Assembly: GCA_963727895.1 (NCBI GenBank)
Contig: CAVSHT010000008.1
Coordinates: 227,580-291,579, forward strand
Length of the DNA stretch: 64,000 nt
From: an uncultured Methanosarcinaceae archaeon
GTDB taxonomy: Archaea; Halobacteriota; Methanosarcinia; Methanosarcinales; Methanosarcinaceae
Reading direction: 5' to 3'
Shown here: positions 12,161 to 57,083 of the stretch, piece by piece
Layout of the letters: every line of letters begins with the position of its first letter
Position numbering within the stretch: position 1 is the first letter of the stretch
Translations under genes and position numbers: made by a program
The notes under the pieces: model-generated
Seen by the model: only the letters and a program-made list of their open reading frames with translations
Databases searched by the model: none
Told to the model about the DNA's origin: nothing

Positions 12161-13032
12161 GGTTCCGTTGCAAAAAATCTTAGAATAAAAAATCTTAGAA
12201 TAAGCCTGTAAATCTATGAATAATGAATAAAAGTTAAAATATTCAAAAAGATATGTCAATATTATAGAACTATTCCAAATAATTGATTAATATATTTAGC
12301 TTCATTAAAGCCAGAGTAATTTAAGTTCTTGATTTGTCCTTTTTTAATCATATTCATAGCTTCAATTCCTTTTAAAGTTTTAATGGCTGTATGAAAAGAC
12401 TGAAATCCTAACATTGGATTAACTATTCGTTTAATGGATCTATGATCCTGTTCTATAATGTTATTCAAATATTTGATTTGTCGAATGCCTACGTTTATAG
12501 GTAGTATTTTATCATTTTTCAGTTTATCTATAGCAGGTGGATAAGCTGGATTTTTGTCAACTGTGATTACTCTTGGAATTTGATTATGATTAGAGTTCAA
12601 AGCTTTCTTAAAGAAACGTTTTGCTGCTTTTTTATTTCGTTTTGCACTTAACATGAAATCAATTGTATCTCCATTTGAGTCAACTGCTCGGTAAAAATAT
12701 TTCCATTCACCTTTAACTCTGATATAAGTTTCATCAACTCTCCAAGAGTCGTTTGTTGGTCTTAAATGCCTTCTGACCTTCTTTTCGATTTCAGGTGAAT
12801 ATTGATGTACCCATCTCATAATGGTTGTATGGTTGACTATTATCCCTCTTTCTGCCATCATTTCCTTTAAATTTCTATAACTAAGTGGGTATTTTAAGTA
12901 CCATCTAACATTCAATAAAATAATTTCACCAACAAAGTGCTTCCATTTAAAGGAATTAGATAGCATATCACTATCTTTGATTTCATTTTTATTTTAATTA
13001 TATCCTTAGCAGATATTTTTTGCAACGGAACC
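12161..13032 (-). mobile_element. IS6-family insertion sequence, copy 1 (transposase 12262-12966)
   Basis: IRs GGTTCCGTTGCAAAAAAT; 234-aa DDE transposase FKWKHF...WRVDETY...YRAVD...LNNIIEQDHR. A 15-bp internal tandem duplication lies next to one IR. No flanking target duplication. Confidence 0.95.
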
Positions 13033-16714: not shown

Positions 16715-17548
16715 AATAAGCCTGCAAATCTATGAATAATGAATAAAAGTTAAAATATTCAAAAAGATATGTCAATATTATAGAACTATTCCAAATAATT
16801 GATTAATATATTTAGCTTCATTAAAGCCAGAGTAATTTAAGTTCTTGATTTGTCCTTTTTTAATCATATTCATAGCTTCAATTCCTTTTAAAGTTTTAGT
16901 GGCTGTATGAAAAGACTGAAATCCTAACATTGGATTAACTATTCGTTTAATGGATCTATGATCTTGTTCTATAATGTTATTCAAATATTTGATTTGTCGA
17001 ATGCCTACGTTTATAGGTAGTATTTTATCATTTTTCAGTTTATCTATAGCAGGTGGATAAGCTGGATTTTTGTCAACTGTGATTACTCTTGGAATTTGAT
17101 TATGATTAGAGTTCAAAGCTTTTTTGAAGAATCTGTTCGCTGCTTTTTGGTTTCGTTTTGCACTTAACATGAAATCAATTGTATCTCCATTTGAGTCAAC
17201 TGCTCGGTAAAAATATTTCCATTCACCTTTAACTCTGATATAAGTTTCATCAACTCTCCAAGAATCGTTTGTTGGTCTTAAATGCCTTCTGACCTTCTTT
17301 TCGATTTCAGGTGAATATTGATGTACCCATCTCATAATGGTTGTATGGTTGACTATTATCCCTCTTTCTGCCATCATTTCCTTTAAATTTCTATAACTAA
17401 GTGGGTATTTTAAGTACCATCTAACATTCAATAAAATAATTTCACCAACAAAGTGCTTCCATTTAAAGGAATTAGATAGCATATCACTATCTTTGATTTC
17501 ATTTTTATTTTAATTATATCCTTAGCAGATATTTTTTGCAACGGAACC
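16692..17548 (-). mobile_element. IS6-family insertion sequence, copy 2 (transposase 16778-17482)
   Basis: Near-identical to copy 1, with the same IRs and orientation. Confidence 0.95.
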
Positions 17549-21519: not shown

Positions 21520-21585
21520 GTTAAAACTGTAACACTAAATCCTGATAGTAATGCAGTCAGTGAAAAATATACTAGATATTATTTT

Positions 21586-22325
21586 GGTATTGTTAACTAA
21601 AAATAGTTAACTCTTTATTTCTTTATTTCATCAATATAATAACCGAGTACTTTAGCATTTCAAGACTTTTTTATAACACTTTGTCTTTCTTCTCAACCTT
21701 GCCAAAAAGTGCCTCAATATGCTGTTATATCCTTCAGCAGTATACGTTTCTGCTTTGGATTGAGTATGGATCTTTTCTGGACGAAACTCTGCATATGCTC
21801 TCCAGTGATCTGTCATCACTTCTCCAATCTCTTTTTTCTTCAATTTTTCCCAGAGTAGTTTTCCAGTTTCTGTTCCTCTGATGCCAAAAGAGCAGTTGAT
21901 GAACTTTTTCCCAACTCTATCAACAGCAATCCAGATACAGCAATATTTTTTTTTGTTACCGATGTAAGTGTGCATCTCATCCATTTCAACAATAGATATC
22001 TCATTTTCACTTTTTAGGTCCTCTAACTCCTGACCAAATTTCTTGATCCATTTTTGGACAGAAACATGACTTACCCCTAAAACTCTTCCTATTGAGCGAA
22101 AGCCCAATCCTTCAAGATAGAGTTGTAAAGCCTGTCTTTTTACAGAAGCGGAAAAAGCAGTTGATTTTAGCTCTACTGTATAGTTATAGCCACAATCAGA
22201 GCATTTGTACCGTTGACGCTCGCCAACTATACCATTATTTTTGTGACTGAAACTATTACATTTTGGGCAGTTCATGAAGAAATATATGGTATAAGCATAT
22301 ATATCTATTTTTGTGTACCAATGCC
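21586..22325 (-). mobile_element. IS1-family element, copy 1 (InsA/InsB fused in frame, C-terminal frameshift)
   Basis: IRs GGTATTG/GGCATTG; CPKC...YKCSDC zinc ribbon, HTH, EMDEMHTY, MTDHW, EGYNSILRH. Confidence 0.93.
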
Positions 22326-22616: not shown

Positions 22617-23472
22617 GGTTCCGTTGCAAAAAATCTTAGAATAAGCCTGTAAATCTATGAATAATGAATAAAAGTTAAAATATTCAAAAAGATATGTCAA
22701 TATTATAGAACTATTCCAAATAATTGATTAATATATTTAGCTTCATTAAAGCCAGAGTAATTTAAGTTCTTGATTTGTCCTTTTTTAATCATATTCATAG
22801 CTTCAATTCCTTTTAAAGTTTTAATGGCTGTATGAAAAGACTGAAATCCTAACATTGGATTAACTATTCGTTTAATGGATCTATGATCCTGTTCTATAAT
22901 GTTATTCAAATATTTGATTTGTCGAATGCCTACGTTTATAGGTAGTATTTTATCATTTTTCAGTTTATCTATAGCAGGTGGATAAGCTGGATTTTTGTCA
23001 ACTGTGATTACTCTTGGAATTTGATTATGATTAGAGTTCAAAGCTTTCTTAAAGAAACGTTTTGCTGCTTTTTGGTCTCGTTTTGCACTTAACATGAAAT
23101 CAATTGTATCTCCATTTGAGTCAACTGCTCGGTAAAAATATTTCCATTTACCTCTCACTTTTATATAGGTTTCATCAACTCTCCAAGAGTTATTAGTTGG
23201 TCTTAAATATCTACGTACCTTCTTTTCGATTTCAGGTGAATATTGATGTATCCATCTCATAATGGTTGTATGGTTGACTATTATCCCTCTTTCTGCCATC
23301 ATTTCCTTTAAATTTCGATAACTTAATGGATATTTTAAGTACCATCTAACATTCAATAAAATAATTTCACCCACAAAATGCTTCCATTTAAAGGGATTAG
23401 ATAGCATGTCATTATCCTTTACTTCCCTTTTATTTGATTATATCCTTAACAGATATTTTTTGCAACGGAACC
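22617..23472 (-). mobile_element. IS6-family insertion sequence, copy 3 (transposase 22703-23407)
   Basis: Same IRs; the 5' part has diverged from copies 1 and 2. Confidence 0.95.
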
Positions 23473-23534: not shown

Positions 23535-24165
23535 GTTAAGGTTAATTGTTTTAACCACGTCCTCAATAATTAGAAGGCCCTTTTCCAACTAAGCCTTTTT
23601 AATGTTTAGAGCAGGGAATATCCTGATTCCGTTACCCTGTGTTTGAGTGACAAATAAACCTCTTTTCAAGCATTTATTTTTGACATATGTAGCTATGCCT
23701 TCGCTTTGGAATTCGACCATGATAAGAAGTCCTTTTCCCCTTATGTCGACAATGACATTTTCATAAATTTTTGGCCACAAACTCATTTTTTTCAGGGCAA
23801 AATAGCCCATTTCTTCTACATTTCTGGAAATATTGTTATCTATCAGGTATTTTATCACTGCATAGGAAACTGCACAACCAAGAGGATTACCATAATATGT
23901 ACCTCCATGATCGCCGATCTCGAGCTTCTTTGCAATGTCCTCGGATAAGGTGAAAGCACCAAATGGAAAACCACCTGCAATTCCTTTTGCCATTGTCATA
24001 AAGTCTGCTTTTACACCACAGGAACTTGTAACAAAAGACGGTCCTGTTCTAAAAAAGCCAGTTTGGATTTCATCCATAATTAGAAGGCTACCATTTTTAT
24101 TACACAGGTTATCCAATTCTCTCAGGTATCCTTCAGAAGGTATATGAACTCCACCTTCTCCCTGA
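23535..24165 (-). pseudogene. Class III (acetylornithine-type) aminotransferase, C-terminal fragment
   Basis: QGEGGVH...LLIMDEIQTGFFRTG...MAKGIAGGFP...HGGTYYGNP...RGKGLLI. The N-terminal half is missing and there is an in-frame TAG at 23589. Confidence 0.85.
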
Positions 24166-25242: not shown

Positions 25243-26265
25243 GTGGATTTGAAAATAGATCAAGAGTTTAAAGAATTGATTCCTCCTCTCTCAGCTGAGG
25301 AGCTTACAAATCTTGAGCAGAGCCTATTAACTGAAGGCTGCAGGGACGCTATTCTCACTTGGAATGACTGCATTATTGACGGTCATAATAGGTTTTCCCT
25401 GTGCACTAAGAACAATATACCTTTTAGGGTTGAGGCTAAAGAGTTTGAATCACGAAATGACGTTTGTATATGGATGATTCAAAACCAATTTGGTAGAAGG
25501 AATTTGGGTAATTATACTAAAAGTAGTTTGAGCCTAAAACTTGAGGAGTATTTTAGGGAGAAAGCTAAGGAAAATCTTATAAAGTCCGCTGAAATGACAA
25601 ATACAAAGATAGGAAATTCAACGGGTTGTCAGAAATCTGACAACCCGTTGATTGAGAAGATAGATACTAAAAAAGAACTCTCTAAAATAGCAGGTGTCTC
25701 ATATGATACTATTTACAAAGTCAAAGAAATCCAATCTCAAACACCTGAAACACTCCTCCCTGAATTGGAGCGTCTGATAAATTCAAATGCAGTAAGCATA
25801 AATCAAGCTCATAAATTTATCCGTGCAATAAAAGCACTTCAAGGAAAAGTACCTGATGAGGTCACAGTTGCAAATAAAATTCTTAGTGAGTTCAATCAGA
25901 ATCCTTCTGTTTCCCTTGAAAGTAAGACAAAAGACGTAATACGTGAAACTCAGCGTGCAGAAAGAGACAGGCAATTGAGAGAAGCTGAAGAAAAGAAAAG
26001 ACTCGCTGCAGAGCAGGCTAGACAAGAAAGAGAAGAAAAGGAAAGACTAGAAAGAGAAAGACTCAGGCTTGAAAGAGAAGTAATAGAAAAAGCTGAGCGT
26101 GAACGTCTTGAAAAAGAAAGATTAGAACGGGAGCGCATTAGGCAAGAACAGCTTGAGAAAGAAAGATTAAGACGAGAGCAGTTGGAAAAAGAAAGAGCTG
26201 AAAAAGAGCTCATTCGAAAAGAAAAAGCTGAGCAGGAAAGAATAAAAAGAGAAAAAAAACGTTGA
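25243..26265 (+). CDS. ParB/Srx-like N-terminal domain + HTH + E/R/K-rich helical tail (mobile-element protein)
   Basis: IDQEFKELIPPLS...EGCRDAI..W...IIDGHNR...NQFGRRNL; HTH TKKELSKIAGVSYDTIYK; GGGGAGG before the GTG start. Confidence 0.75.
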   Translation: MDLKIDQEFKELIPPLSAEELTNLEQSLLTEGCRDAILTWNDCIIDGHNRFSLCTKNNIPFRVEAKEFESRNDVCIWMIQNQFGRRNLGNYTKSSLSLKLEEYFREKAKENLIKSAEMTNTKIGNSTGCQKSDNPLIEKIDTKKELSKIAGVSYDTIYKVKEIQSQTPETLLPELERLINSNAVSINQAHKFIRAIKALQGKVPDEVTVANKILSEFNQNPSVSLESKTKDVIRETQRAERDRQLREAEEKKRLAAEQARQEREEKERLERERLRLEREVIEKAERERLEKERLERERIRQEQLEKERLRREQLEKERAEKELIRKEKAEQERIKREKKR

Positions 26266-26394
26266 ATATTTAGAAAAGAGTAAACCATTAATAGATTACG
26301 TAATTACGTTAAAAAATCCGCATAAAAAATAAAAAAAGCACGAAAAGAAAAAATAAAGCAACTTTTGTATAGTTAAAATTCAATAATAATACCC

Positions 26395-27360
26395 ATGACA
26401 TATAAAAAATGTTTTATTATTATGCCAGTTTCCACTCCACCAGAATTAGTTTCTGTTTATAAAGAAGATAGTGATCATTTCCTACATGTCATAGAGCATT
26501 TGTTTATACCTGCAATTAAGGAAGCTGGATTTGAACCAATTAAACCAATAACCGAAGGTTCTGACATTATTCACAGTCATATTATTTCTAATCTTGAGTC
26601 TTCAGACTTAGTACTGTGCGATATGTCTACAAATAATCCGAATGTCTTTTTTGAATTTGGGATTCGTACTGCATTAAATAAACCCGTTTGCGTAGTAAGA
26701 GATTGTTTTGAGGGAAAAGTACCTTTCGATGTCGTTTCAATTAATTATCATATATATTCATCAGATTGGTCTCCATGGAAATTAGAAAATGAAATTGACA
26801 AATTAGCTAAACATATAAAAAATAGTTTTAGTGAAAATGACAACTGTAATCAATTATGGAAATACTTTGGGGCAAAGACACAATCCAAAGAAGATACAGC
26901 CAAAGAAACCAATGGATTAATAAATCCCACTAGATTTAAGAAACTAGAAGGTATTATAGTTGATATAAATCATGGATTAATAAAACGTTGTCCAGAATGT
27001 AAAGAAATATTACAACTAGGAAAATGTTCATCTCATGGAAGAGTTAAGGGTGAATATGACATTTATTTAGAAGCCATACTTTATAATGAATTTTTTGAAT
27101 GTAGCTTGAAAATTAACAGACCAGTTTTAGAGAAATATTTTGAAGTGAGTGTAGCTTCATGTATTGCACTGGCAGCAGATCATTTAGATCCTAGCGTAGT
27201 CAAAGATTTATTTTGGCAACAGCTGATTGGTAAATGGTTTTTGCTGAAAGGACATTATTCCCATATGAGCTTCGATGTTGAGAGCATGGAAATAAATGAT
27301 AATTTCAATCATGTTGACTTCCTCAGATATTACAACAAATGGAAAACCGGAAGAGAATGA
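26395..27360 (+). CDS. Nucleoside 2-deoxyribosyltransferase/N-glycosidase-like domain fused to an RPA-type OB-fold/CCCH zinc-finger domain
   Basis: N-terminal CFIIMP...SDLVLCDMSTNNPNVFFEFGIRTALNKPV...PFDV; C-terminal GIIVDINHGLIKRCPECx8CSSHGRVKGEYDIYLEAIL. Confidence 0.72.
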   Translation: MTYKKCFIIMPVSTPPELVSVYKEDSDHFLHVIEHLFIPAIKEAGFEPIKPITEGSDIIHSHIISNLESSDLVLCDMSTNNPNVFFEFGIRTALNKPVCVVRDCFEGKVPFDVVSINYHIYSSDWSPWKLENEIDKLAKHIKNSFSENDNCNQLWKYFGAKTQSKEDTAKETNGLINPTRFKKLEGIIVDINHGLIKRCPECKEILQLGKCSSHGRVKGEYDIYLEAILYNEFFECSLKINRPVLEKYFEVSVASCIALAADHLDPSVVKDLFWQQLIGKWFLLKGHYSHMSFDVESMEINDNFNHVDFLRYYNKWKTGRE

Positions 27361-27574
27361 ATCAAAAATTGAAATTTTCTCTTTATCTGTGACTTCACCT
27401 TTGATTTCAGCTTTATTCCGATTAACCCCCCGTCACCGCTCTAAGATAGTAGAAAAAGCAAGAAAGCTGAAGTATTTGCTTGTACCTGCAAAAAGAGAAG
27501 AAAACTCGACGTTGTAGCGAAAAGCGACTTAAATGCCCGAAAATAAGTAACTGGTTAAAATAAACACAAATTAA

Positions 27575-27623
27575 GGTTCCGTTGCAAAAAATATCTGCTA
27601 AGGATATAATTAAAATAAAAATG
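27575..27623 (+). mobile_element. IS6 left-end remnant cut by IS1
   Basis: 49 bp identical to the reverse complement of the copy 1/2 left end, immediately followed by an IS1 IR. Confidence 0.88.
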
Positions 27624-28363
27624 GGCTTTGATACTTAAACATAGTTATATACTATTAGAAAGTATATTTCTTCATTAACTGCCCCAGATGCAATAGTTCC
27701 AGTCACAAAAAGAACGGTATAGTTGGCGGGCGTCAACGGTACAAATGCTCTGATTGTGGCTATAACTATACAGTAGAGCTAAAATCAACTGCTTTTTCCG
27801 CTTTTGTAAAAAGACAGGCTTTACAACTCTATCTTGAAGGATTAGGCTTTCGCTCAATAGGAAGAGTTTTAGGGGTGAGTCATGTTTCTGTCCAAAGATG
27901 GATAAAGAAATTTGGTCAGGAGTTAGAGGACCTAAAAAGTGAAAATGAGATATCTATTGTTGAAATGGATGAAATGCACACTTACATCGGTAACAAAAAA
28001 AATATTGCTGGATCTGGATTGCTGTTGATAGAGTTGGGAAAAAGTTCATCAACTGCTCTTTTGGTAGCAGAGGAACAGAAACTGGAAAACTACTCTGGGA
28101 AAAAGTGAAGAAAAAAGAGATTGGAGAAGTAATGACAGATCACTGGAGAGCATATGCAGAGTTTCTTCCAGAAAAGAGTCATACTCAATCAAAAGCAGAA
28201 ACATTTACAGTTGAGGGATATAACAGCATATTGAGGCATTTTCTAGCAAGATTGAGAAGAAAGACAAAGTGTTATACAAAAAGTCTTGAAATGCTAAAGT
28301 ACTCGGTTATTCTATTGATGAAATACAGAAATAAAGAGTTAACTATGTTTAATTAACAATGCC
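27624..28363 (+). mobile_element. IS1-family element, copy 2 (start codon ATG>ATT)
   Basis: GGCTTTGAT...AACAATGCC ends; insA/insB with an A8 slippery site. Confidence 0.93.
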
Positions 28364-28729
28364 TAAATTTTATATTTGTAATGATTCAGCCTAGATAAAA
28401 TAACATCAATATCTATATTTAATAATAATCAATAGACAAATTTCTGTAAATTAATTTTCTTTGATTATTATCAATTGACTACGTTTTTTATTGTTCTGGA
28501 GTTCTTCCTCATACATAAATGGATTATTACTGTTGCCATTGTAACAATATGTAGTTTCCTAAAAGTTATTCTCTTATCAAATGTCCTAATAATAACGATT
28601 TTCTGGCTCCATATTTTCTGAATGTTCAGTTTCTTGAACTTTTCATTTTTTCTATAATCAGGAAGAGACAACCGACGCAACGGTTGTTCCAAAAACCTAA
28701 TATAGAACTGTTTCAATCTAAAAGCTTCG

Positions 28730-31870: not shown

Positions 31871-32282
31871 AGTTTCATTATAAAAATTTTTTACCTAACC
31901 TTTTAATTTTTCTTTTTAAATTTTTGAACTGGTTCTTATCTTTATGCTGTTTTACTGTCTTTTGTGGCTTCTATAAGTAAAATATCCTCTTCATTTCTAG
32001 AACCACTAAATGATAGTTATCACTCACAGATAGTTTGGAGAAACTTTGTTAAATAGAGCAATTTATCGTTTTTCACCTGATCAAGTATGTAAAAAACTTA
32101 ACTTCCAAATTTAAAGAGTAAATCAAAAACCGATTCATTTTAGAAAAACGCTAATTATATCCTGAATATAGACTCCTTACTTATTTCATACTAAAGCAAG
32201 GAAAGTTATCTTGCCTATTTGTGTCAGACTTGGAAATTCAATTTATTATATTTTTCTTGCATATTTATGACAATTGTATTTT

Positions 32283-33043
32283 GGTATTATTAACTAAACA
32301 TAGTTAACTCTTTATTTCTGTATTTCATCAATAGAATAACCGAGTACTTTAGCATTTCAAGACTTTTTGTATCACACTTTGTCTTTCTTCTCAACCTTGC
32401 TAGAAAGTGCCTCAATATGCTGTTATATCTCCCTCAACTGTAAATGTTTCTGCTTTTGATTGAGTATGGATCTTTTCTGGAAGAAACTCTGCATATGCTC
32501 TCCAGTGATCTGTCATCATTTCTCCAATTTATTTTTTCTTCAATTTTTCCCAGAGTAGTTTTCCAGTTTCCGTTCCTCTGATGCCAAAAGAGCAGTTGAT
32601 GAACTTTTTCCCAACTCTATCAACAGCAATCCAGATCCAGCAATATTTTTTTTGTTACCGATGTAAGTGTGCATCTCATCCATTTCAACAATAGATATCT
32701 CACTTTCACTTTTTAGGTTCTCTCACTCTTGACCAAATTTCTTGATCCATTTTTGGACAGAAACATGACTTACCCCTAAAACTCTTCCTATTGAGCGAAA
32801 GCCTAATCCTTCAAGATAGAGTTGTAAAGCCTGTCTTTTTACAGAAGCGGAAAAAGCAGTTGATTTTAGCTCTACTGTATAGTTATAGCCACAATCAGAG
32901 CATTTGTACCGTTGACGTCCGCCAACTATACCATTCTTTTTGTAATTAGAACTATTGCATCTGGGGCAGTTTGAAGAAATATATGTTATAAGTATATATA
33001 TGTTATAAGCATATATATATATATATTTTTGATTACCAATGCC
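32283..33043 (-). mobile_element. IS1-family element, copy 3 (degenerate)
   Basis: IR ends; start codon lost, internal frameshifts, AT duplication at the left end. Confidence 0.9.
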
Positions 33044-42138: not shown

Positions 42139-44129
42139 GGCATTGATACTTAAACATAGTTATATACTATTAGAAAGTATATTTCTTCATGAACTGCCCC
42201 AGATGCAATAGTTCTAATTACAAAAATAATGGTATAGTTGGCGGGCGTCAACGGTACAAATGCTCTGATTGTGGCTATAACTATACAGTAGAGCTAAAAT
42301 CAACTGCTTTTTCCGTCTCTGTAAAAAGACAGGCTTTACAACTCTATCTTGAAGGATTAGGGTTCATGTCCACAGACCTCTTGCAGTAAATTTGATTTGA
42401 ATCTTCTGACATATTTGTAAAAACAAATCAACATCTATAGTCAATAGGCTAAATACTACAACTTTATTGAGATACAAAATGTTATTTTTTGCAGCAATTA
42501 TGGGCGTTACTATATGTCTGAAATATACGTTTATAAATGGGAGGATATCCAAAAATATTTTCCACCTGAAAGAGTGGCAGAAATTCGAGCCAAAATCCTT
42601 GAACTGCGAAAATCTGGAAAATATACCGATAGAGAACTGTGGGAAATGTATGGAATGAGCGAACGTACTTTCTATTATCTTGTTGAAAGAGCAAAAGACG
42701 GAAGTAGAGCAGAAGACTTGAAGGACACGCCTTCGAAGCCTAAAAATCCATATCGAAAGCTAACGGATGAAGATAAAGCTGAAATAATAAATCTCTATTT
42801 GAATAATACAAACAAAATCGAATCATCTAAACATGCGTTTGTTGATGCAATGGAAAAAACAGACCATGTCTTAAAATCAGAGAGAGTACAGCAATTGACG
42901 GGATTAATGGATAAAGCTGTGAAGGGAGTTCGAAGAATTGCAGCTTCATTCAATAAAAAAAAAGAGAACAAAGAAAGCTCAGTTTGTGTTGGCAAATCAT
43001 GGGTTCATCATATTCTTGCTATTGCTGGGCTTACTGGAAAACAGAAGACGGCTATAAGTTCCAAACATCTTCAACGCCCTCAAGAACCATTGAGCTCTTT
43101 CAATATGGACTATACTCAACGGAGAATTGGAAATGGTGAGACTGCGTATGTTTTTGGTGTACTTGATATTTTTAACAGTGGTATTGTAATCCTTGATGCC
43201 CATAAGACAAAATCAGGTGCGAATGTGGTAGAATCTCTTCACCAATTACGCAAAATAGTACCAAAAGATGTTGTAATCGAGATTCGATCTGATGGAGGTT
43301 TGGAGTTTAATAATGCGACTGTGCGTGAATATTGTAATAAAAATAATATTATACATCATATTCTTCCAAAGGCACATCCGTGGTTGAACGCTTTCATTGA
43401 ACGAGCAATAGAGACTTTGCAATATGAATTCATAAATTTACAATACCATGCAACGTTTAATGATTTTCAGAAATTTCTTGTGATTACTAAAAATGGATAC
43501 AATTTACGTGAGCATTCATCATTCAACTATCGAAGTCCAGTGGAAATATGGAATTCTTCGGAAGTTTCATTGAGTGTTACTGCAAGAGGTCTGTGGACAT
43601 GAACATTAGGCTTTCGCTCAATAGGAAGAGTTTTAGGGGTAAGTCATGTTTCTGTCCAAAAATGGATCAAGAAATTTGGTCAAGAGTTAGAGGATCTAAA
43701 AAGTGAAAGTGAGATATCTATTGTTGAAATGGATGAGATGCACACTTACATCGGTAACAAAAAAAATATTGCTGGATCTGGATTGCTGTTGATAGAGTTG
43801 GGAAAAAGTTCATCAACTGCTCTTTTGGCATCAGAGGAACGGAAACTGGAAAACTACTCTGGGAAAAATTGAAGAAAAAAGAGATTGGAGAAGTGATGAC
43901 AGATCACTGGAGAGCATATGCAGAGTTTATTCCAGAAAAGAGTCATACTCAATCCAAAGCAGAAACATTTACAGTTGAGGGAGATATAACAGCATATTGA
44001 GGCACTTTCTAGCAAGGTTGAGAAGAAAGACAAAGTGTGATACAAAAAGTCTTGAAATGCTAAAGTACTCGGTTATTCTATTGATGAAATACAGAAATAA
44101 AGAACTAGATATATTTAAGTAACAATGCC
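42139..44129 (+). mobile_element. IS1-family element, copy 4, interrupted by a nested IS; 8-bp TSD CATTTTCC
   Basis: TSD at 42131-42138 and 44130-44137; IRs GGCATTG...CAATGCC. Confidence 0.93.
42362..43604 (+). mobile_element. IS481-like (rve/DDE) insertion sequence, transposase 42514-43602
   Basis: Perfect 28-bp IRs GTTCATGTCCACAGACCTCTTGCAGTAA; 6-bp TSD ATTAGG; N-terminal HTH and DDE motifs NMDYT...RSDGGLEF...NAFIER. Confidence 0.88.
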
Positions 44130-44147: not shown

Positions 44148-44887
44148 GGTATTGTTACTTAATTATATCTAGTTCTTTATTTCTGTATTTCATCAATATA
44201 ATAACCGAGTACTTTAGCATTTCAAGACTCTTCGTATAACACTTTGTCTTTCTTCTCAACCTTGCCAGAAAATACCTCAATATGCTGTTATATCCCTCAA
44301 CTGTAAATGTTTCTGCTTTTGATTGAGTATGAATCGTTTAAGGAATAAACTCTGCATATGCTCTCCAGTGATCTGTCATCATTTCTCCAATTTATTTTTT
44401 CTTCAATTTTTCCCAGAGTAGTTTTCCAGTTTCCGTTCCTCTGATGCCAAAAGAGCAGTTGATGAACTTTTTCCCAACTCTATCAACAGCAATCCAGATC
44501 CAGCAATATTTTTTTTGTTACCAATGTAAGTGTTCATTTCATCCATTTCAACAATAGATATCTCATTTTCACTTTTTAGATCCTCTAACTCCTGACCAAA
44601 TTTCGTTATCCATTTTTGGACAGAAACATGACTCACCCCTAAAACTCTTCCTATTGAGCGAAAGCCCAATCCTTCAAGATAGAGTTGTAAAGCCTGTTTT
44701 TTGACATAAGTGAAAAAAGCAGTTGATTTTAGCTCTACTGTATAGTTATATCCACAATCATGGCATTTGTAGCGTTGACGACCACCAACTATACCATTCT
44801 TTTTGTGACTGGAACTATTGCATCTGGGGCAGTTAATGAAGAAATAGAGGTTCTCATAATAAATAACTATAGTTAATTAGCAAAGCC
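44148..44887 (-). mobile_element. IS1-family element, copy 5 (start ATG>ATT, degenerate)
   Basis: IRs; tail-to-tail with copy 4, 18 bp apart; no matching TSD. Confidence 0.92.
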
Positions 44888-45082
44888 CTTTTACTAAAAT
44901 AGAATATGAGTAAGATTCAACCGCAAAAATCAATAAAACAAGAAGAAAAGAATATCAGAAGAGCAAAAGAGCAGGAACAAAAACTGAGAAGAAGATTTTT
45001 ATTTCCATAATGGTCGAATTCTAGATATAAAGTGTAAACCATTATGGAACAAATCATATTTGATAGTGCCTTTTGACAGTTT

Positions 45083-51521: not shown

Positions 51522-51573
51522 CATAATATAGAAGTAAAAATTTAGTTTCACAGCAAATAACATAAAAAACAGA

Positions 51574-52313
51574 GGCATTGATACTTAAACATAGTTATAT
51601 GCTATTAGAAAGTATATTTCTTCATTAACTGCCCCAGATGCAATAGTTCCAGTCACAAAAAGAATGGTATAGTTGGTGGTCGTCAACGGTACAAATGCCA
51701 TGATTGTGGATATAACTATACAGTAGAGCTAAAATCAACTGCTTTTTCCGCTTCTGTAAAAAGACAGGCTTTACAACTTTACCTTGAAGGATTGGGCTTT
51801 CGCTCAATAGGAAGAGTTTTAGGGGTGAGTCATGTTTCTGTCCAAAAATGGATCACGAAATTTGGTCAGGAGTTAGAGGACCTAAAAAGTGAAAATGAGA
51901 TATCTATTGTTGAAATGGATGAAATGAACACTTACATTGGTAACAAAAAAAATATTGCTGGATCTGGATTGCTGTTGATAGAGTTGGGAAAAAGTTCATC
52001 AACTGCTCTTTTGGTAGCAGAAAAACAGAAACTGGAAAACTACTCTGGGAAAAATTGAAGAAAAAAGACATTGGAGAAGTGATGACCGATCACTGGAGAG
52101 CATATGCAGAGTTTCGTCCTTAAACGATTCATACTCAATCAAAAGCAGAAACATTTACAGTTGAGGGATATAACAGCATATTAAGGTATTTTCTGGCAAG
52201 GTTGAGAAGAAAGACAAAGTGTTATACAAAAAGTCTTGAAATGCTAAAGTACTCGGTTATTCTATTGATGAAATACAGAAATAAAGAACTAGATATAATT
52301 AAGTAACAATGCC
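51574..52313 (+). mobile_element. IS1-family element, copy 6 (start ATG>ATT, premature stop)
   Basis: IRs GGCATTG...CAATGCC; insA/insB homology. Confidence 0.92.
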
Positions 52314-52409
52314 AAATTTTGAAATGATTAAATATGCTCAACCTGAACCAGACGCTGTTAAACTATATCGTAAAATAGTATGGGTAAAATGACTGTCGAT
52401 AGTCTGCTA

Positions 52410-56343: not shown

Positions 56344-57083
56344 GGCTTTGATAATTAACTATAGTTATATACTATTAGAAAGTATATTTCTTCATGAACT
56401 GCCCCAGATGCAATAGTTCCAGTCACAAAAAGAACGGTATAGTTGGTGGGCGTCAACGGTACAAATGCCATGATTGTGGATATAACTATACAGTAGAGCT
56501 AAAATCAACTGCTTTTTCCGCCTCTGTTAAAAGACAGGCTTTACAACTTTACCTTGAAAGATTGGGCTTTCGCTCAATAGGAAGAGTTTTAGGGGTGAGT
56601 CATGTTTCTGTCCAAAGATGGATCAAGAAATTTGGTCAGGAGTTAGAGGACCTAAAAAGTGAAAATGAGATATCTATTGTTGAAATGGATGAAATGCACA
56701 CTTACATCGGTAACAAACAAAATATTTCTGGATCTGGATTGCTGTTGATAGAGTTGGGAAAAAGTTCATCAACTGCTCTTTTGGTAGCAGAGGAACGGAA
56801 ACTGGAAAACTACTCTGGGAAAAAGTGAAGAAAAAAGAGATTGGAGAAGTGATGACAGATCACTGGAGGGCATATGCAGAGTTTCTTCCTGAAAAGAGTC
56901 ATACTCAATCAAAAGCAGAAACATTTACAGTTGAGGGATATAACAGCATATTGAGGCATTTCCTGGCAAGATTGAGAAGAAAGACAAAGTGTTATACGAA
57001 GAGTCTTGAAATGCTAAAGTACTCGGTTATTCTATTGATGAAATACAGAAATAAAGAACTAGATATAGTTAAGTAACAGTACC
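56344..57083 (+). mobile_element. IS1-family element, copy 7; 8-bp TSD ATCGAGTT
   Basis: TSD at 56336-56343 and 57084-57091; intact insA (56394-56828) and insB frames; slippery run changed to AAACAAAA. Confidence 0.95.

Follow-up and report, generated by a model that had tools for sequence, protein, structure and literature searches.

Apart from CRISPR and restriction, the antiviral immunity of archaea is poorly charted, and proteins that unite sensor and effector in a single polypeptide have come mainly from bacteria. Here we describe a protein encoded in a 64,000-nucleotide stretch of DNA from an uncultured Methanosarcinaceae archaeon (assembly GCA_963727895.1, contig CAVSHT010000008.1; the whole stretch is called the window), in which a nucleoside 2-deoxyribosyltransferase (NDT)-like domain is fused to a domain derived from archaeal replication protein A (RPA). 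Two described systems come closest to it. Swarozyc is a single protein in which a helical stalk links a TIR-like NADase to an auxiliary domain and which is activated by a phage portal (bioRxiv 10.64898/2026.05.01.722283). The NDT-like effector of retron Ec86 has been proposed to act as dimers (bioRxiv 10.1101/2023.08.16.553469). We propose that the archaeal fusion is a stand-alone, mobile sensor-effector protein of cellular conflicts whose putative glycosidase would be activated when a ligand drives its clustering via the RPA-derived domain, and we put the probability of this reading at about one half. Its role would most likely be abortive infection or antiviral defense, and superinfection exclusion by a mobile element is a possible one.

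Like Swarozyc, the fusion is one polypeptide, in which a connector joins an N-terminal, putatively Glu-dependent enzyme of the TIR/NDT-like supergroup to an auxiliary domain at the C-terminus. In Swarozyc it is the auxiliary domain that decides activation, and its distribution is patchy and horizontally spread, as is that of the fusion. The two differ in their parts: the N-terminal domain of the fusion matches PF05014 and not DUF4062 or TIR, its auxiliary domain is a captured RPA DBD-C, and its connector is predicted to be a disordered linker. Moreover, the host is an archaeon. The retron Eco1/Ec86 effector similarly joins an NDT-like effector to a nucleic-acid-related (DNA-binding) domain, but the retron also needs a reverse transcriptase and multicopy single-stranded DNA (msDNA); no reverse transcriptase domain is present in the Pfam-scanned open reading frames (ORFs) around the fusion, and no search was made for msr/msd RNA. 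Swarozyc is the closest described analog in logic and the retron Ec86 effector the closest in enzyme fold. Related in concept are the integrated decoys of plant nucleotide-binding leucine-rich repeat (NLR) receptors and fused sensor-toxins such as CapRel. They resemble the fusion in that a host-target-like or variable C-terminal domain is carried by an immune executor and exchanged between executors, but they differ in kingdom and domains, and the likeness is one of concept alone. Modular sensor-effectors that consist of one protein and use an NDT/TIR-like executor are already known; new are the RPA DBD-C as a common module, its remodeled surface and a large NDT-like branch. In a limited literature collection, we found no description of an RPA DBD-C fused to effector modules.

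The gene is an ORF of 321 codons plus stop with an ATG start (Table 1). A sequence-only reading of the window had described its product as an NDT-like N-glycosidase domain with an intact Glu, followed by an archaeal RPA zinc-finger OB domain, and both motif patterns on which it relied are found in the translation, namely CFIIMP...LVLCDMSTNNPNVFFEFGIRTALNKPV...VPFD at residues 6–112 and GIIVDINHGLIKRCPEC-KEILQLGK-CSSH-GRVKGEYDIYLEAIL from residue 186; the CX2CX8CX2H zinc motif lies exactly where it had been placed (26989–27036). The C-terminal half is a DBD-C-type domain of the archaeal RPA large subunit, not a whole RPA. Residues 182–299 match the NCBIfam family PRK07217 ('replication factor A') with an E-value of 1e-22 over profile positions 172–293 of 311, at 80.9 bits against a cut-off of 353. 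A HMMER search with residues 176–321 against 1.84 billion representatives returned 243 proteins at E ≤ 1e-3, most of them RPAs that carry the domain at their C-terminus, and the domain is 45% (E 4.9e-23) and 26% identical to the genome's own RPAs. The model built with 146 sequences (predicted local distance difference test score, pLDDT, 95; predicted template modeling score, pTM, 0.87) has the order β1, zinc ribbon, β2, β3, three helices, β4, β5 and C-terminal helix, the same topology as described for Pyrococcus abyssi Rpa1 OB-2 and eukaryotic DBD-C (PMC10122647; PMC8329085). The structures that it matches best are those of P. abyssi Rpa1 OB-2 (Z 11.1 over 131 residues), Teb1 OB-C (10.0), Ustilago maydis RPA70 (9.8) and human RPA70 DBD-C (9.5), with generic SSB/PriB OB folds lower at Z of about 8, and Foldseek placed 8oej_A first (E 4.2e-6) and 8aas_A second (E 5.3e-6).

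While the fold of the RPA domain has been kept, its surface has been remodeled. An alignment of 23 fusions and RPAs shows no variation in the four zinc ligands (C, C, C and H), and among the 146 C-domain sequences the three Cys are invariant and the His is nearly so. On strand β2, between 132 RPA C-domains and 14 fusion C-domains, an Arg (97%) is replaced by Tyr (79%), a Lys (85%) by Glu (86%) and an Asp (95%) by Tyr (79%). The OB core contains a median of 12 aromatic residues in the fusions versus 5 in the RPAs, and the C-terminal helix has a Trp in 100% of the fusions at a position where 33% of the RPAs have Leu. From their conservation and their position on the OB face, we infer that the β2 Arg, Lys and Asp of RPAs contact DNA. 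MacRPA3 without its DBD-C is reported to bind ssDNA (single-stranded DNA) nearly normally (PMC8329085). A plain ssDNA sensor is less likely because the β2 residues are replaced and because MacRPA3 binds ssDNA without this domain; RPA-like ssDNA binding by the fusion is doubtful, and a remodeled ligand surface is the more likely explanation. Thus, of the earlier suggestion that a captured RPA domain senses ssDNA, the RPA origin holds and the sensing of plain ssDNA does not fare as well. The fusion shares with archaeal zinc-finger RPAs (MacRPA2/3, HvoRpa1/3; PRK07217/PRK07218) the homologous ribbon, the helical insert and the C-terminal helix, the equivalent of which builds the trimerization bundle of RPA subunits (PMC10122647; PMC8329085). 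It differs from them not only in β2, aromatic content and the new C-terminal helix signature but also in lacking the N-terminal ssDNA-binding OB folds, residues 1–160 being NDT-like, and in its setting: both host RPA genes are followed by a gene for an RPA-associated OB protein, whereas the fusion gene is followed by an insertion sequence (IS) copy. A predicted complex between the C-domain and the host RPA-associated protein scored 0.31 against a mark of 0.32, without controls, and counts neither way. On contig C14 of genome G000, which is about 33 kb long, the host RPA nearest to the captured domain is matched identically near both ends, at 726–1052 and 32665–32991 (L002, L003), beside a fragment of an IS6 transposase; either the contig ends are duplicated or the contig may be circular, with an overlap left by assembly, and both explanations are tentative.

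The captured domain is not confined to the NDT-like protein. The closest HMMER matches reach the very end of the query and are other fusions. Full-length homologs of the window's protein, 70–84% identical, are present in other assemblies, and further copies (P0002–P0006, G240, L006) show that the fusion is not a chimera unique to this assembly, a concern raised by the sequence-only reading; the archaeon is labeled Methanosarcina-like on the strength of named relatives such as Methanosarcina spelaei. Four proteins of 393–431 residues have two predicted transmembrane (TM) helices at about residues 15–35 and 197–227, which flank a segment of about 165 residues, and two proteins have a PIN domain (E 7.8e-6 and 1.3e-5); a further protein, P0124, is a fragment whose cluster-mate P0273 is a 402-residue form with two predicted TM helices. 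In a tree of the 146 C-domains (quick search, LG+G4, midpoint root), the 14 fusion-type sequences (seven NDT, four TM, two PIN and P0124) form one clade with a support of 98 in the Shimodaira–Hasegawa-like approximate likelihood ratio test (SH-aLRT), and NDT and TM forms are interleaved inside it. The clade sits on a long branch (0.74) with a single sequence as sister (support 77). Fusion-type proteins are rare, with one to three sequences per 90% cluster. A word-based search with the C-domain alone retrieved only fusions (six proteins), and a metagenome scan with alignment A4 for RPA-tail loci yielded 143 pattern matches and no confirmed one. The captured DBD-C, then, is one clade found on three N-terminal modules, NDT-like, PIN and two-TM, which suggests that it is a swappable sensor for proteins of cellular conflict, probably antiviral ones.

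Based on its model, the N-terminal domain is assigned to the NDT/DNPH1 N-glycosidase superfamily with the catalytic-type Glu kept, an assignment that is weak by sequence and firm by fold. PF05014 matches it with an E-value of 2.6e-4 at 21.6 bits, under the gathering cut-off of 28.8; of 34 family members, 32 are matched by the same profile at E ≤ 0.01, the best with an E-value of 1.7e-6. In searches of PDB sequences, DNPH1/Rcl was found at an E-value of 0.012, and the A1 family profile gave weak matches only, to Rcl (0.016) and to a stretch of Dicer (5e-4) that is probably spurious. No TIR or DUF4062 family of Pfam was found at E ≤ 1 for the fusion protein or at E ≤ 0.01 in the 34 relatives, and the PADLOC model PDLC00733 ('Effector TIR') weakly matches residues 58–140 (E 4.8e-5). 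The domain is modeled with a pLDDT of about 90 in the full-length protein, and its best structural matches, with Z of 11–13.4 over about 115–140 residues, are DNPH1/Rcl (8rps_B: Z 13.4, root-mean-square deviation 2.5 Å, 124 residues), MilB/BcmB (MilB 12.7) and NDTs (11–12), with the TIR domain of SARM1 close behind at 10.9; Foldseek placed an NDT first (E 6.7e-5, range 6.7e-5 to 1e-3). The Glu of the E-x-G motif in Rcl and NDTs is the nucleophile. Glu87 aligns with the Glu in the corresponding 'GYELG' of Rcl and is invariant in all 34 aligned family members, as are D76, N81, N83, R91, T92, D103 and P110-F111-D112, in agreement with the intact Glu of the sequence-only reading. Apart from this shared Glu, the DNPH1, MilB and NDT enzymes are 12–17% identical to the domain, lack as motifs its family-invariant CFIIMP, VLCDMS, NPNVFFE.GIRT, PFD and LWKYF, and, unlike the fusion, bear no sensor-like C-terminal module. 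By its sequence, the domain is a divergent branch of the NDT superfamily and not a member of the curated Pfam family.

This branch is large, and its C-terminal modules are exchanged. A word-based search retrieved 873 N-domain proteins at E ≤ 1e-3 from bacteria, archaea and phages, and the tails were analyzed in the best 120 of these 873 matches, 108 of which have an LWKYF-type closing motif. Grouping the tails gave clusters with 82, 8, 6 and 4 members and, in addition, five singletons; the RPA tail occurs only in the cluster of eight (P0001–P0008), the usual tail is a conserved stretch that looks helical in the alignment, followed by a small variable domain, and a few tails are helix-turn-helix or zinc-ribbon domains. 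Among species-representative genomes, 111 of 132 pattern matches were confirmed, and the 80 kept are 5 archaeal and 75 bacterial. The N-domains of P0004, with an RPA tail, and P0009, with another tail, are identical at 156 of 158 positions while the tails are unrelated, which indicates a recent exchange at the linker. A metagenome contig (run X6) that tracks the N-domain and diverges at nucleotide 26893 (codon 166) fits an exchange at this place. A metagenome search with the single fusion protein returned 23 N-domain relatives, none of which extends past residue 193, and a search of the ESM Atlas gave leads only (best score 0.87). A third tail type, Cys-rich with several CxxC-like pairs, is found in the Methanosarcina-like P0012 and P0013 (341–342 residues); their tails are 68% and their N-domains 98.7% identical, i.e. 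the tails evolve faster than the enzyme domain. In addition, an 84-residue frame at G000:C4:402328-402525 (L005) is 35% identical to N-domain residues 63–129 (E 9.9e-5) and may be what is left of a second family member.

Conflict systems use modules of the NDT/TIR-like, PIN and membrane kinds as executors. Exchangeable effector modules on one host domain, together with exchangeable C-termini on one enzyme, make up the pattern of modular conflict proteins, and it is because of this pattern and the precedents of Swarozyc and retron Ec86 that we favor a sensor-effector with ligand-driven clustering. We hypothesize that the RPA-derived domain is the input module and binds the trigger, which could be a viral factor that normally engages the host RPA or an unusual complex, either of nucleic acid or of protein. 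Several copies would be gathered on the ligand or via the C-terminal helix, and this clustering would let the NDT-like domains pair. NDT-family enzymes are active as dimers, so pairing would bring about activation. The paired domains would subsequently hydrolyze NAD+ or (deoxy)nucleotides at the N-glycosidic bond and halt the growth of the infected cell, and the PIN and membrane versions may follow the same clustering logic. As a tentative and, in this exact form, unlikely extension, the captured domain may be an integrated decoy, that is, a DBD-C copied by mobile elements of Methanosarcinales, stripped of its DNA-contacting Arg and Lys, and used to bait those viral proteins by which host RPA is hijacked or displaced. 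Loss of the Arg and Lys would keep host ssDNA from triggering the bait, and capture would cluster the attached executor, whether NDT-like, PIN or membrane, and kill the infected cell. If true, such a decoy would be an archaeal counterpart of the integrated decoys of plant NLRs, built on a core replication protein.

Several observations weigh against the proposed sensor-effector. Beyond the weak match to the TIR effector, no system-specific model of PADLOC-DB v2.0, a library dated 2023, matches the fusion. The wider N-family also lacks an enrichment of defense genes: PADLOC matches at E ≤ 1e-8 were found for 15 of 150 near neighbors (one to two genes away, out of 225) versus 17 of 150 far ones (at least five genes away, out of 314) among ORFs of 100–900 residues, in a test in which the far set may lie inside islands and is an imperfect control, which covers the wider N-family and not the RPA-tail subgroup, and in which many matches are generic ABC-ATPase models. 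No conserved partner gene for the fusion was found in 78 loci, where no neighbor family is recurrent and the largest neighbor cluster comprises four proteins in four loci. The RPA-tail contexts inspected, though suggestive, are only three (the window, G240 and G280), all of them cellular. N-domains that are 50–60% identical between the archaeon and many bacterial phyla are unusually similar for a defense gene, and the disordered linker (pLDDT below 50 at residues 160–193 of the full-length model) leaves the relative placement of the two domains without a confident prediction. Finally, phage NDT-domain proteins can remodel nucleotide pools, according to a recent preprint (bioRxiv 10.1101/2025.10.22.683976). 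The sensor-effector idea of the sequence-only reading is thus favored by the reuse of the same domain on PIN and two-TM modules and by the other C-termini of the N-domain, and disfavored by the neighborhoods of the N-family.

The conservation of the N-domain and the lack of defense-gene enrichment would also be expected of a glycosidase associated with replication or repair, with the RPA-derived domain as a tether that holds the NDT-like enzyme on ssDNA or on an RPA partner at forks. There the enzyme would remove odd nucleotides or bases, an accessory housekeeping function rather than immunity. DNPH1 clears 5-hydroxymethyl-deoxyuridine monophosphate (hmdUMP), and the folds nearest to the N-domain, DNPH1 and MilB, are nucleotide N-glycosidases. 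The equivalent RPA domain sits on ssDNA and binds an RPA2-like partner (PMC10122647; PMC8329085). A tethered glycosidase is, however, at odds with the distribution of the gene. RPA matches are present in 275 of 284 genomes of the order, whereas the fusion-type proteins recognized among the matches listed come from 3 of these 284, namely the window genome, G240 (NDT) and G280 (PIN), and, within the genus, from 2 of 58 genomes; the other listed matches were judged to be RPAs by length and alignment span, with 386 weaker matches outside the listing. The loss of the RPA-conserved β2 Arg and Lys and the lack of a conserved neighbor also argue against it, and the occurrence of the domain on two-TM and PIN toxin-type proteins is hard to reconcile with repair. 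Nor is the fusion found in the conserved housekeeping context that the sequence-only reading had considered as a counter-argument to a defense role. Overall, we regard a tethered glycosidase as rather unlikely.

The mobile setting of the gene could equally point to a fused toxin-antitoxin or addiction module, in which the NDT-like toxin is checked in cis by the C-terminal domain and stabilizes its carrier element. The fusion gene is flanked by a multi-copy gene and an IS1-like copy, and the DNA that the window has in common with G240 is only 26342–27293 (82.5% identity), i.e. the gene and about 50 bp upstream, which in turn disfavors the tethered glycosidase, since nothing but the gene itself is common to the genomes. 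In G240, the neighbors are a pentapeptide-repeat membrane protein and a protein with an Mrr_cat restriction-endonuclease domain, and the island also bears an archaeal phage integrase, no more than about 5 kb away; in G280, a HicAB pair and a DUF234 ATPase adjoin the PIN form. The PIN domain is classically a toxin, and the single-gene architecture and the exchangeable C-termini on a constant enzyme would suit addiction as well. On the other hand, no labile-antitoxin feature or autoregulatory operator was identified, inhibition in cis leaves unexplained why one host-derived domain is common to three unrelated effector types, and the gene in the window is not in a recognizable element, the multi-copy repeat unit stopping before the fusion. 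An addiction module therefore seems to us rather unlikely. Least probable, and in our view very unlikely, is an offensive or counter-defense factor of viruses or mobile elements, the RPA-like domain of which would dock on the host RPA partner or replisome and deliver a nucleotide-degrading, RNA-cutting or membrane module for host replication shut-down, nucleotide-pool remodeling or destruction of immune signals: the N-domain matches phrog_3634 (E 3.1e-26), six viral contigs carry it, in two inspected ones its gene adjoins terminase, portal, methyltransferase or replication genes, and the RPA subunit-assembly helix has been kept, with its new signature, but a scan of viral contigs with A4 for RPA-tail versions gave 107 pattern matches and none confirmed, and each of the three RPA-tail loci inspected belongs to a cellular genome. 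Both the addiction module and the offensive factor keep some weight because phage NDT proteins remodel nucleotide pools. The phrog_3634 genes in question lie at L126 5827-6834 and L127 5932-6816 on IMG/VR phage contigs, in one case between a DNA methyltransferase/portal and the large terminase, whereas the other is flanked by the small terminase and by a replication module comprising helicase, resolvase, SSB and primase.

The surroundings of the gene are chromosomal. The sequence-only reading had seen a plasmid-like remnant with a ParB-like neighbor, neither of which is supported: ribonucleotide reductase, purN, glyA, folD and Hdr-like genes are nearby, interspersed with IS6 and IS1 copies, and no ParB match was found in Pfam, PHROGs or PDB sequence searches. 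The gene so named is the multi-copy gene at 25243–26265 (+), whose product combines a stretch reading '...IIDGHNR...' in its N-terminal part with a long coiled-coil tail rich in Glu, Arg and Lys. It was considered as a partner of the fusion and rejected: paralogs that are up to 85% identical are found elsewhere (G000:C9:157116-158081, C9:166062-166737 and C11:180903-181196), its repeat unit starts about 100 bp upstream and the DNA homology ends at the 3' end of the ORF, before the fusion, and G240 has it only as a copy riddled with stop codons on a contig other than that of the fusion. The fusion gene stands alone, with a patchy, mobile distribution, and we count both in favor of the sensor-effector reading; the signs of mobility include the IS copies, the settings in G240 and G280 and the occurrence of the N-domain on phage contigs. 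The IS1-like copy just downstream (27608–28371) has a broken transposase frame (ORFs 27875–28108 and 28105–28356) and seven further copies in the window, near 21581–22325, 32278–33012, 42139–42364, 43605–44129, 44148–44892, 51555–52320 and 56344–57078; this family comprises at least eight whole or partial copies, 92–95% identical. Three IS6/IS240-type transposase genes of 234 codons are located at 12262–12966, 16778–17482 and 22703–23407, all on the minus strand, and between the third of these and the fusion cassette a class-III aminotransferase fragment (23589–24116, profile positions 218–389 only) looks like a gene remnant left by insertions. With regard to expression, no run contained half of the gene's words, and one 151-nt contig from an RNA library covers 27258–27396 with six differences, which does not show transcription of the fusion gene.

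Table 1. Features of the fusion gene and of the protein it encodes, with positions in the window.
Feature	Positions	Strand	Basis
Whole gene: NDT-like N-domain, linker and RPA DBD-C-like C-domain	26395..27360	+	ORF list; full-length homologs
N-domain, residues 1–160: α/β fold of the NDT/DNPH1 superfamily, putative N-glycosidase effector	26395..26874	+	Model; fold matches
Glu87 codon in NPNVFFEFG, candidate catalytic nucleophile	26653..26655	+	Aligns with the Glu of Rcl/DNPH1 'GYELG'; invariant in the family
Linker, residues 161–182: polar, low confidence; exchange point of C-terminal modules	26875..26940	+	pLDDT; comparison of P0004 and P0009
C-domain, residues 183–321: zinc-ribbon OB fold of RPA DBD-C type with helical insert and C-terminal helix	26941..27357	+	PRK07217; model
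Zinc motif C199-x2-C202-x8-C211-x2-H214	26989..27036	+	Read from sequence
β2 face, Y224/E226/Y230 in place of RPA Arg/Lys/Asp	27064..27084	+	Column comparison of fusion and RPA C-domains
C-terminal helix, residues 306–317, with fusion-specific L..Y..W signature (W316)	27310..27345	+	Full model; column comparison

Copies of one domain of an essential replication protein have been remodeled and passed among three types of executors, and the fusion is a testable candidate for the archaeal surveillance of interference with the replication machinery. At the same time, a large uncharacterized NDT-like branch has been defined that is present in bacteria, archaea and phages and has hundreds of members with exchangeable C-termini. 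Should the branch act on NAD+ or nucleotides, it would extend the known set of TIR, SIR2 and NDT executors by a widespread family.

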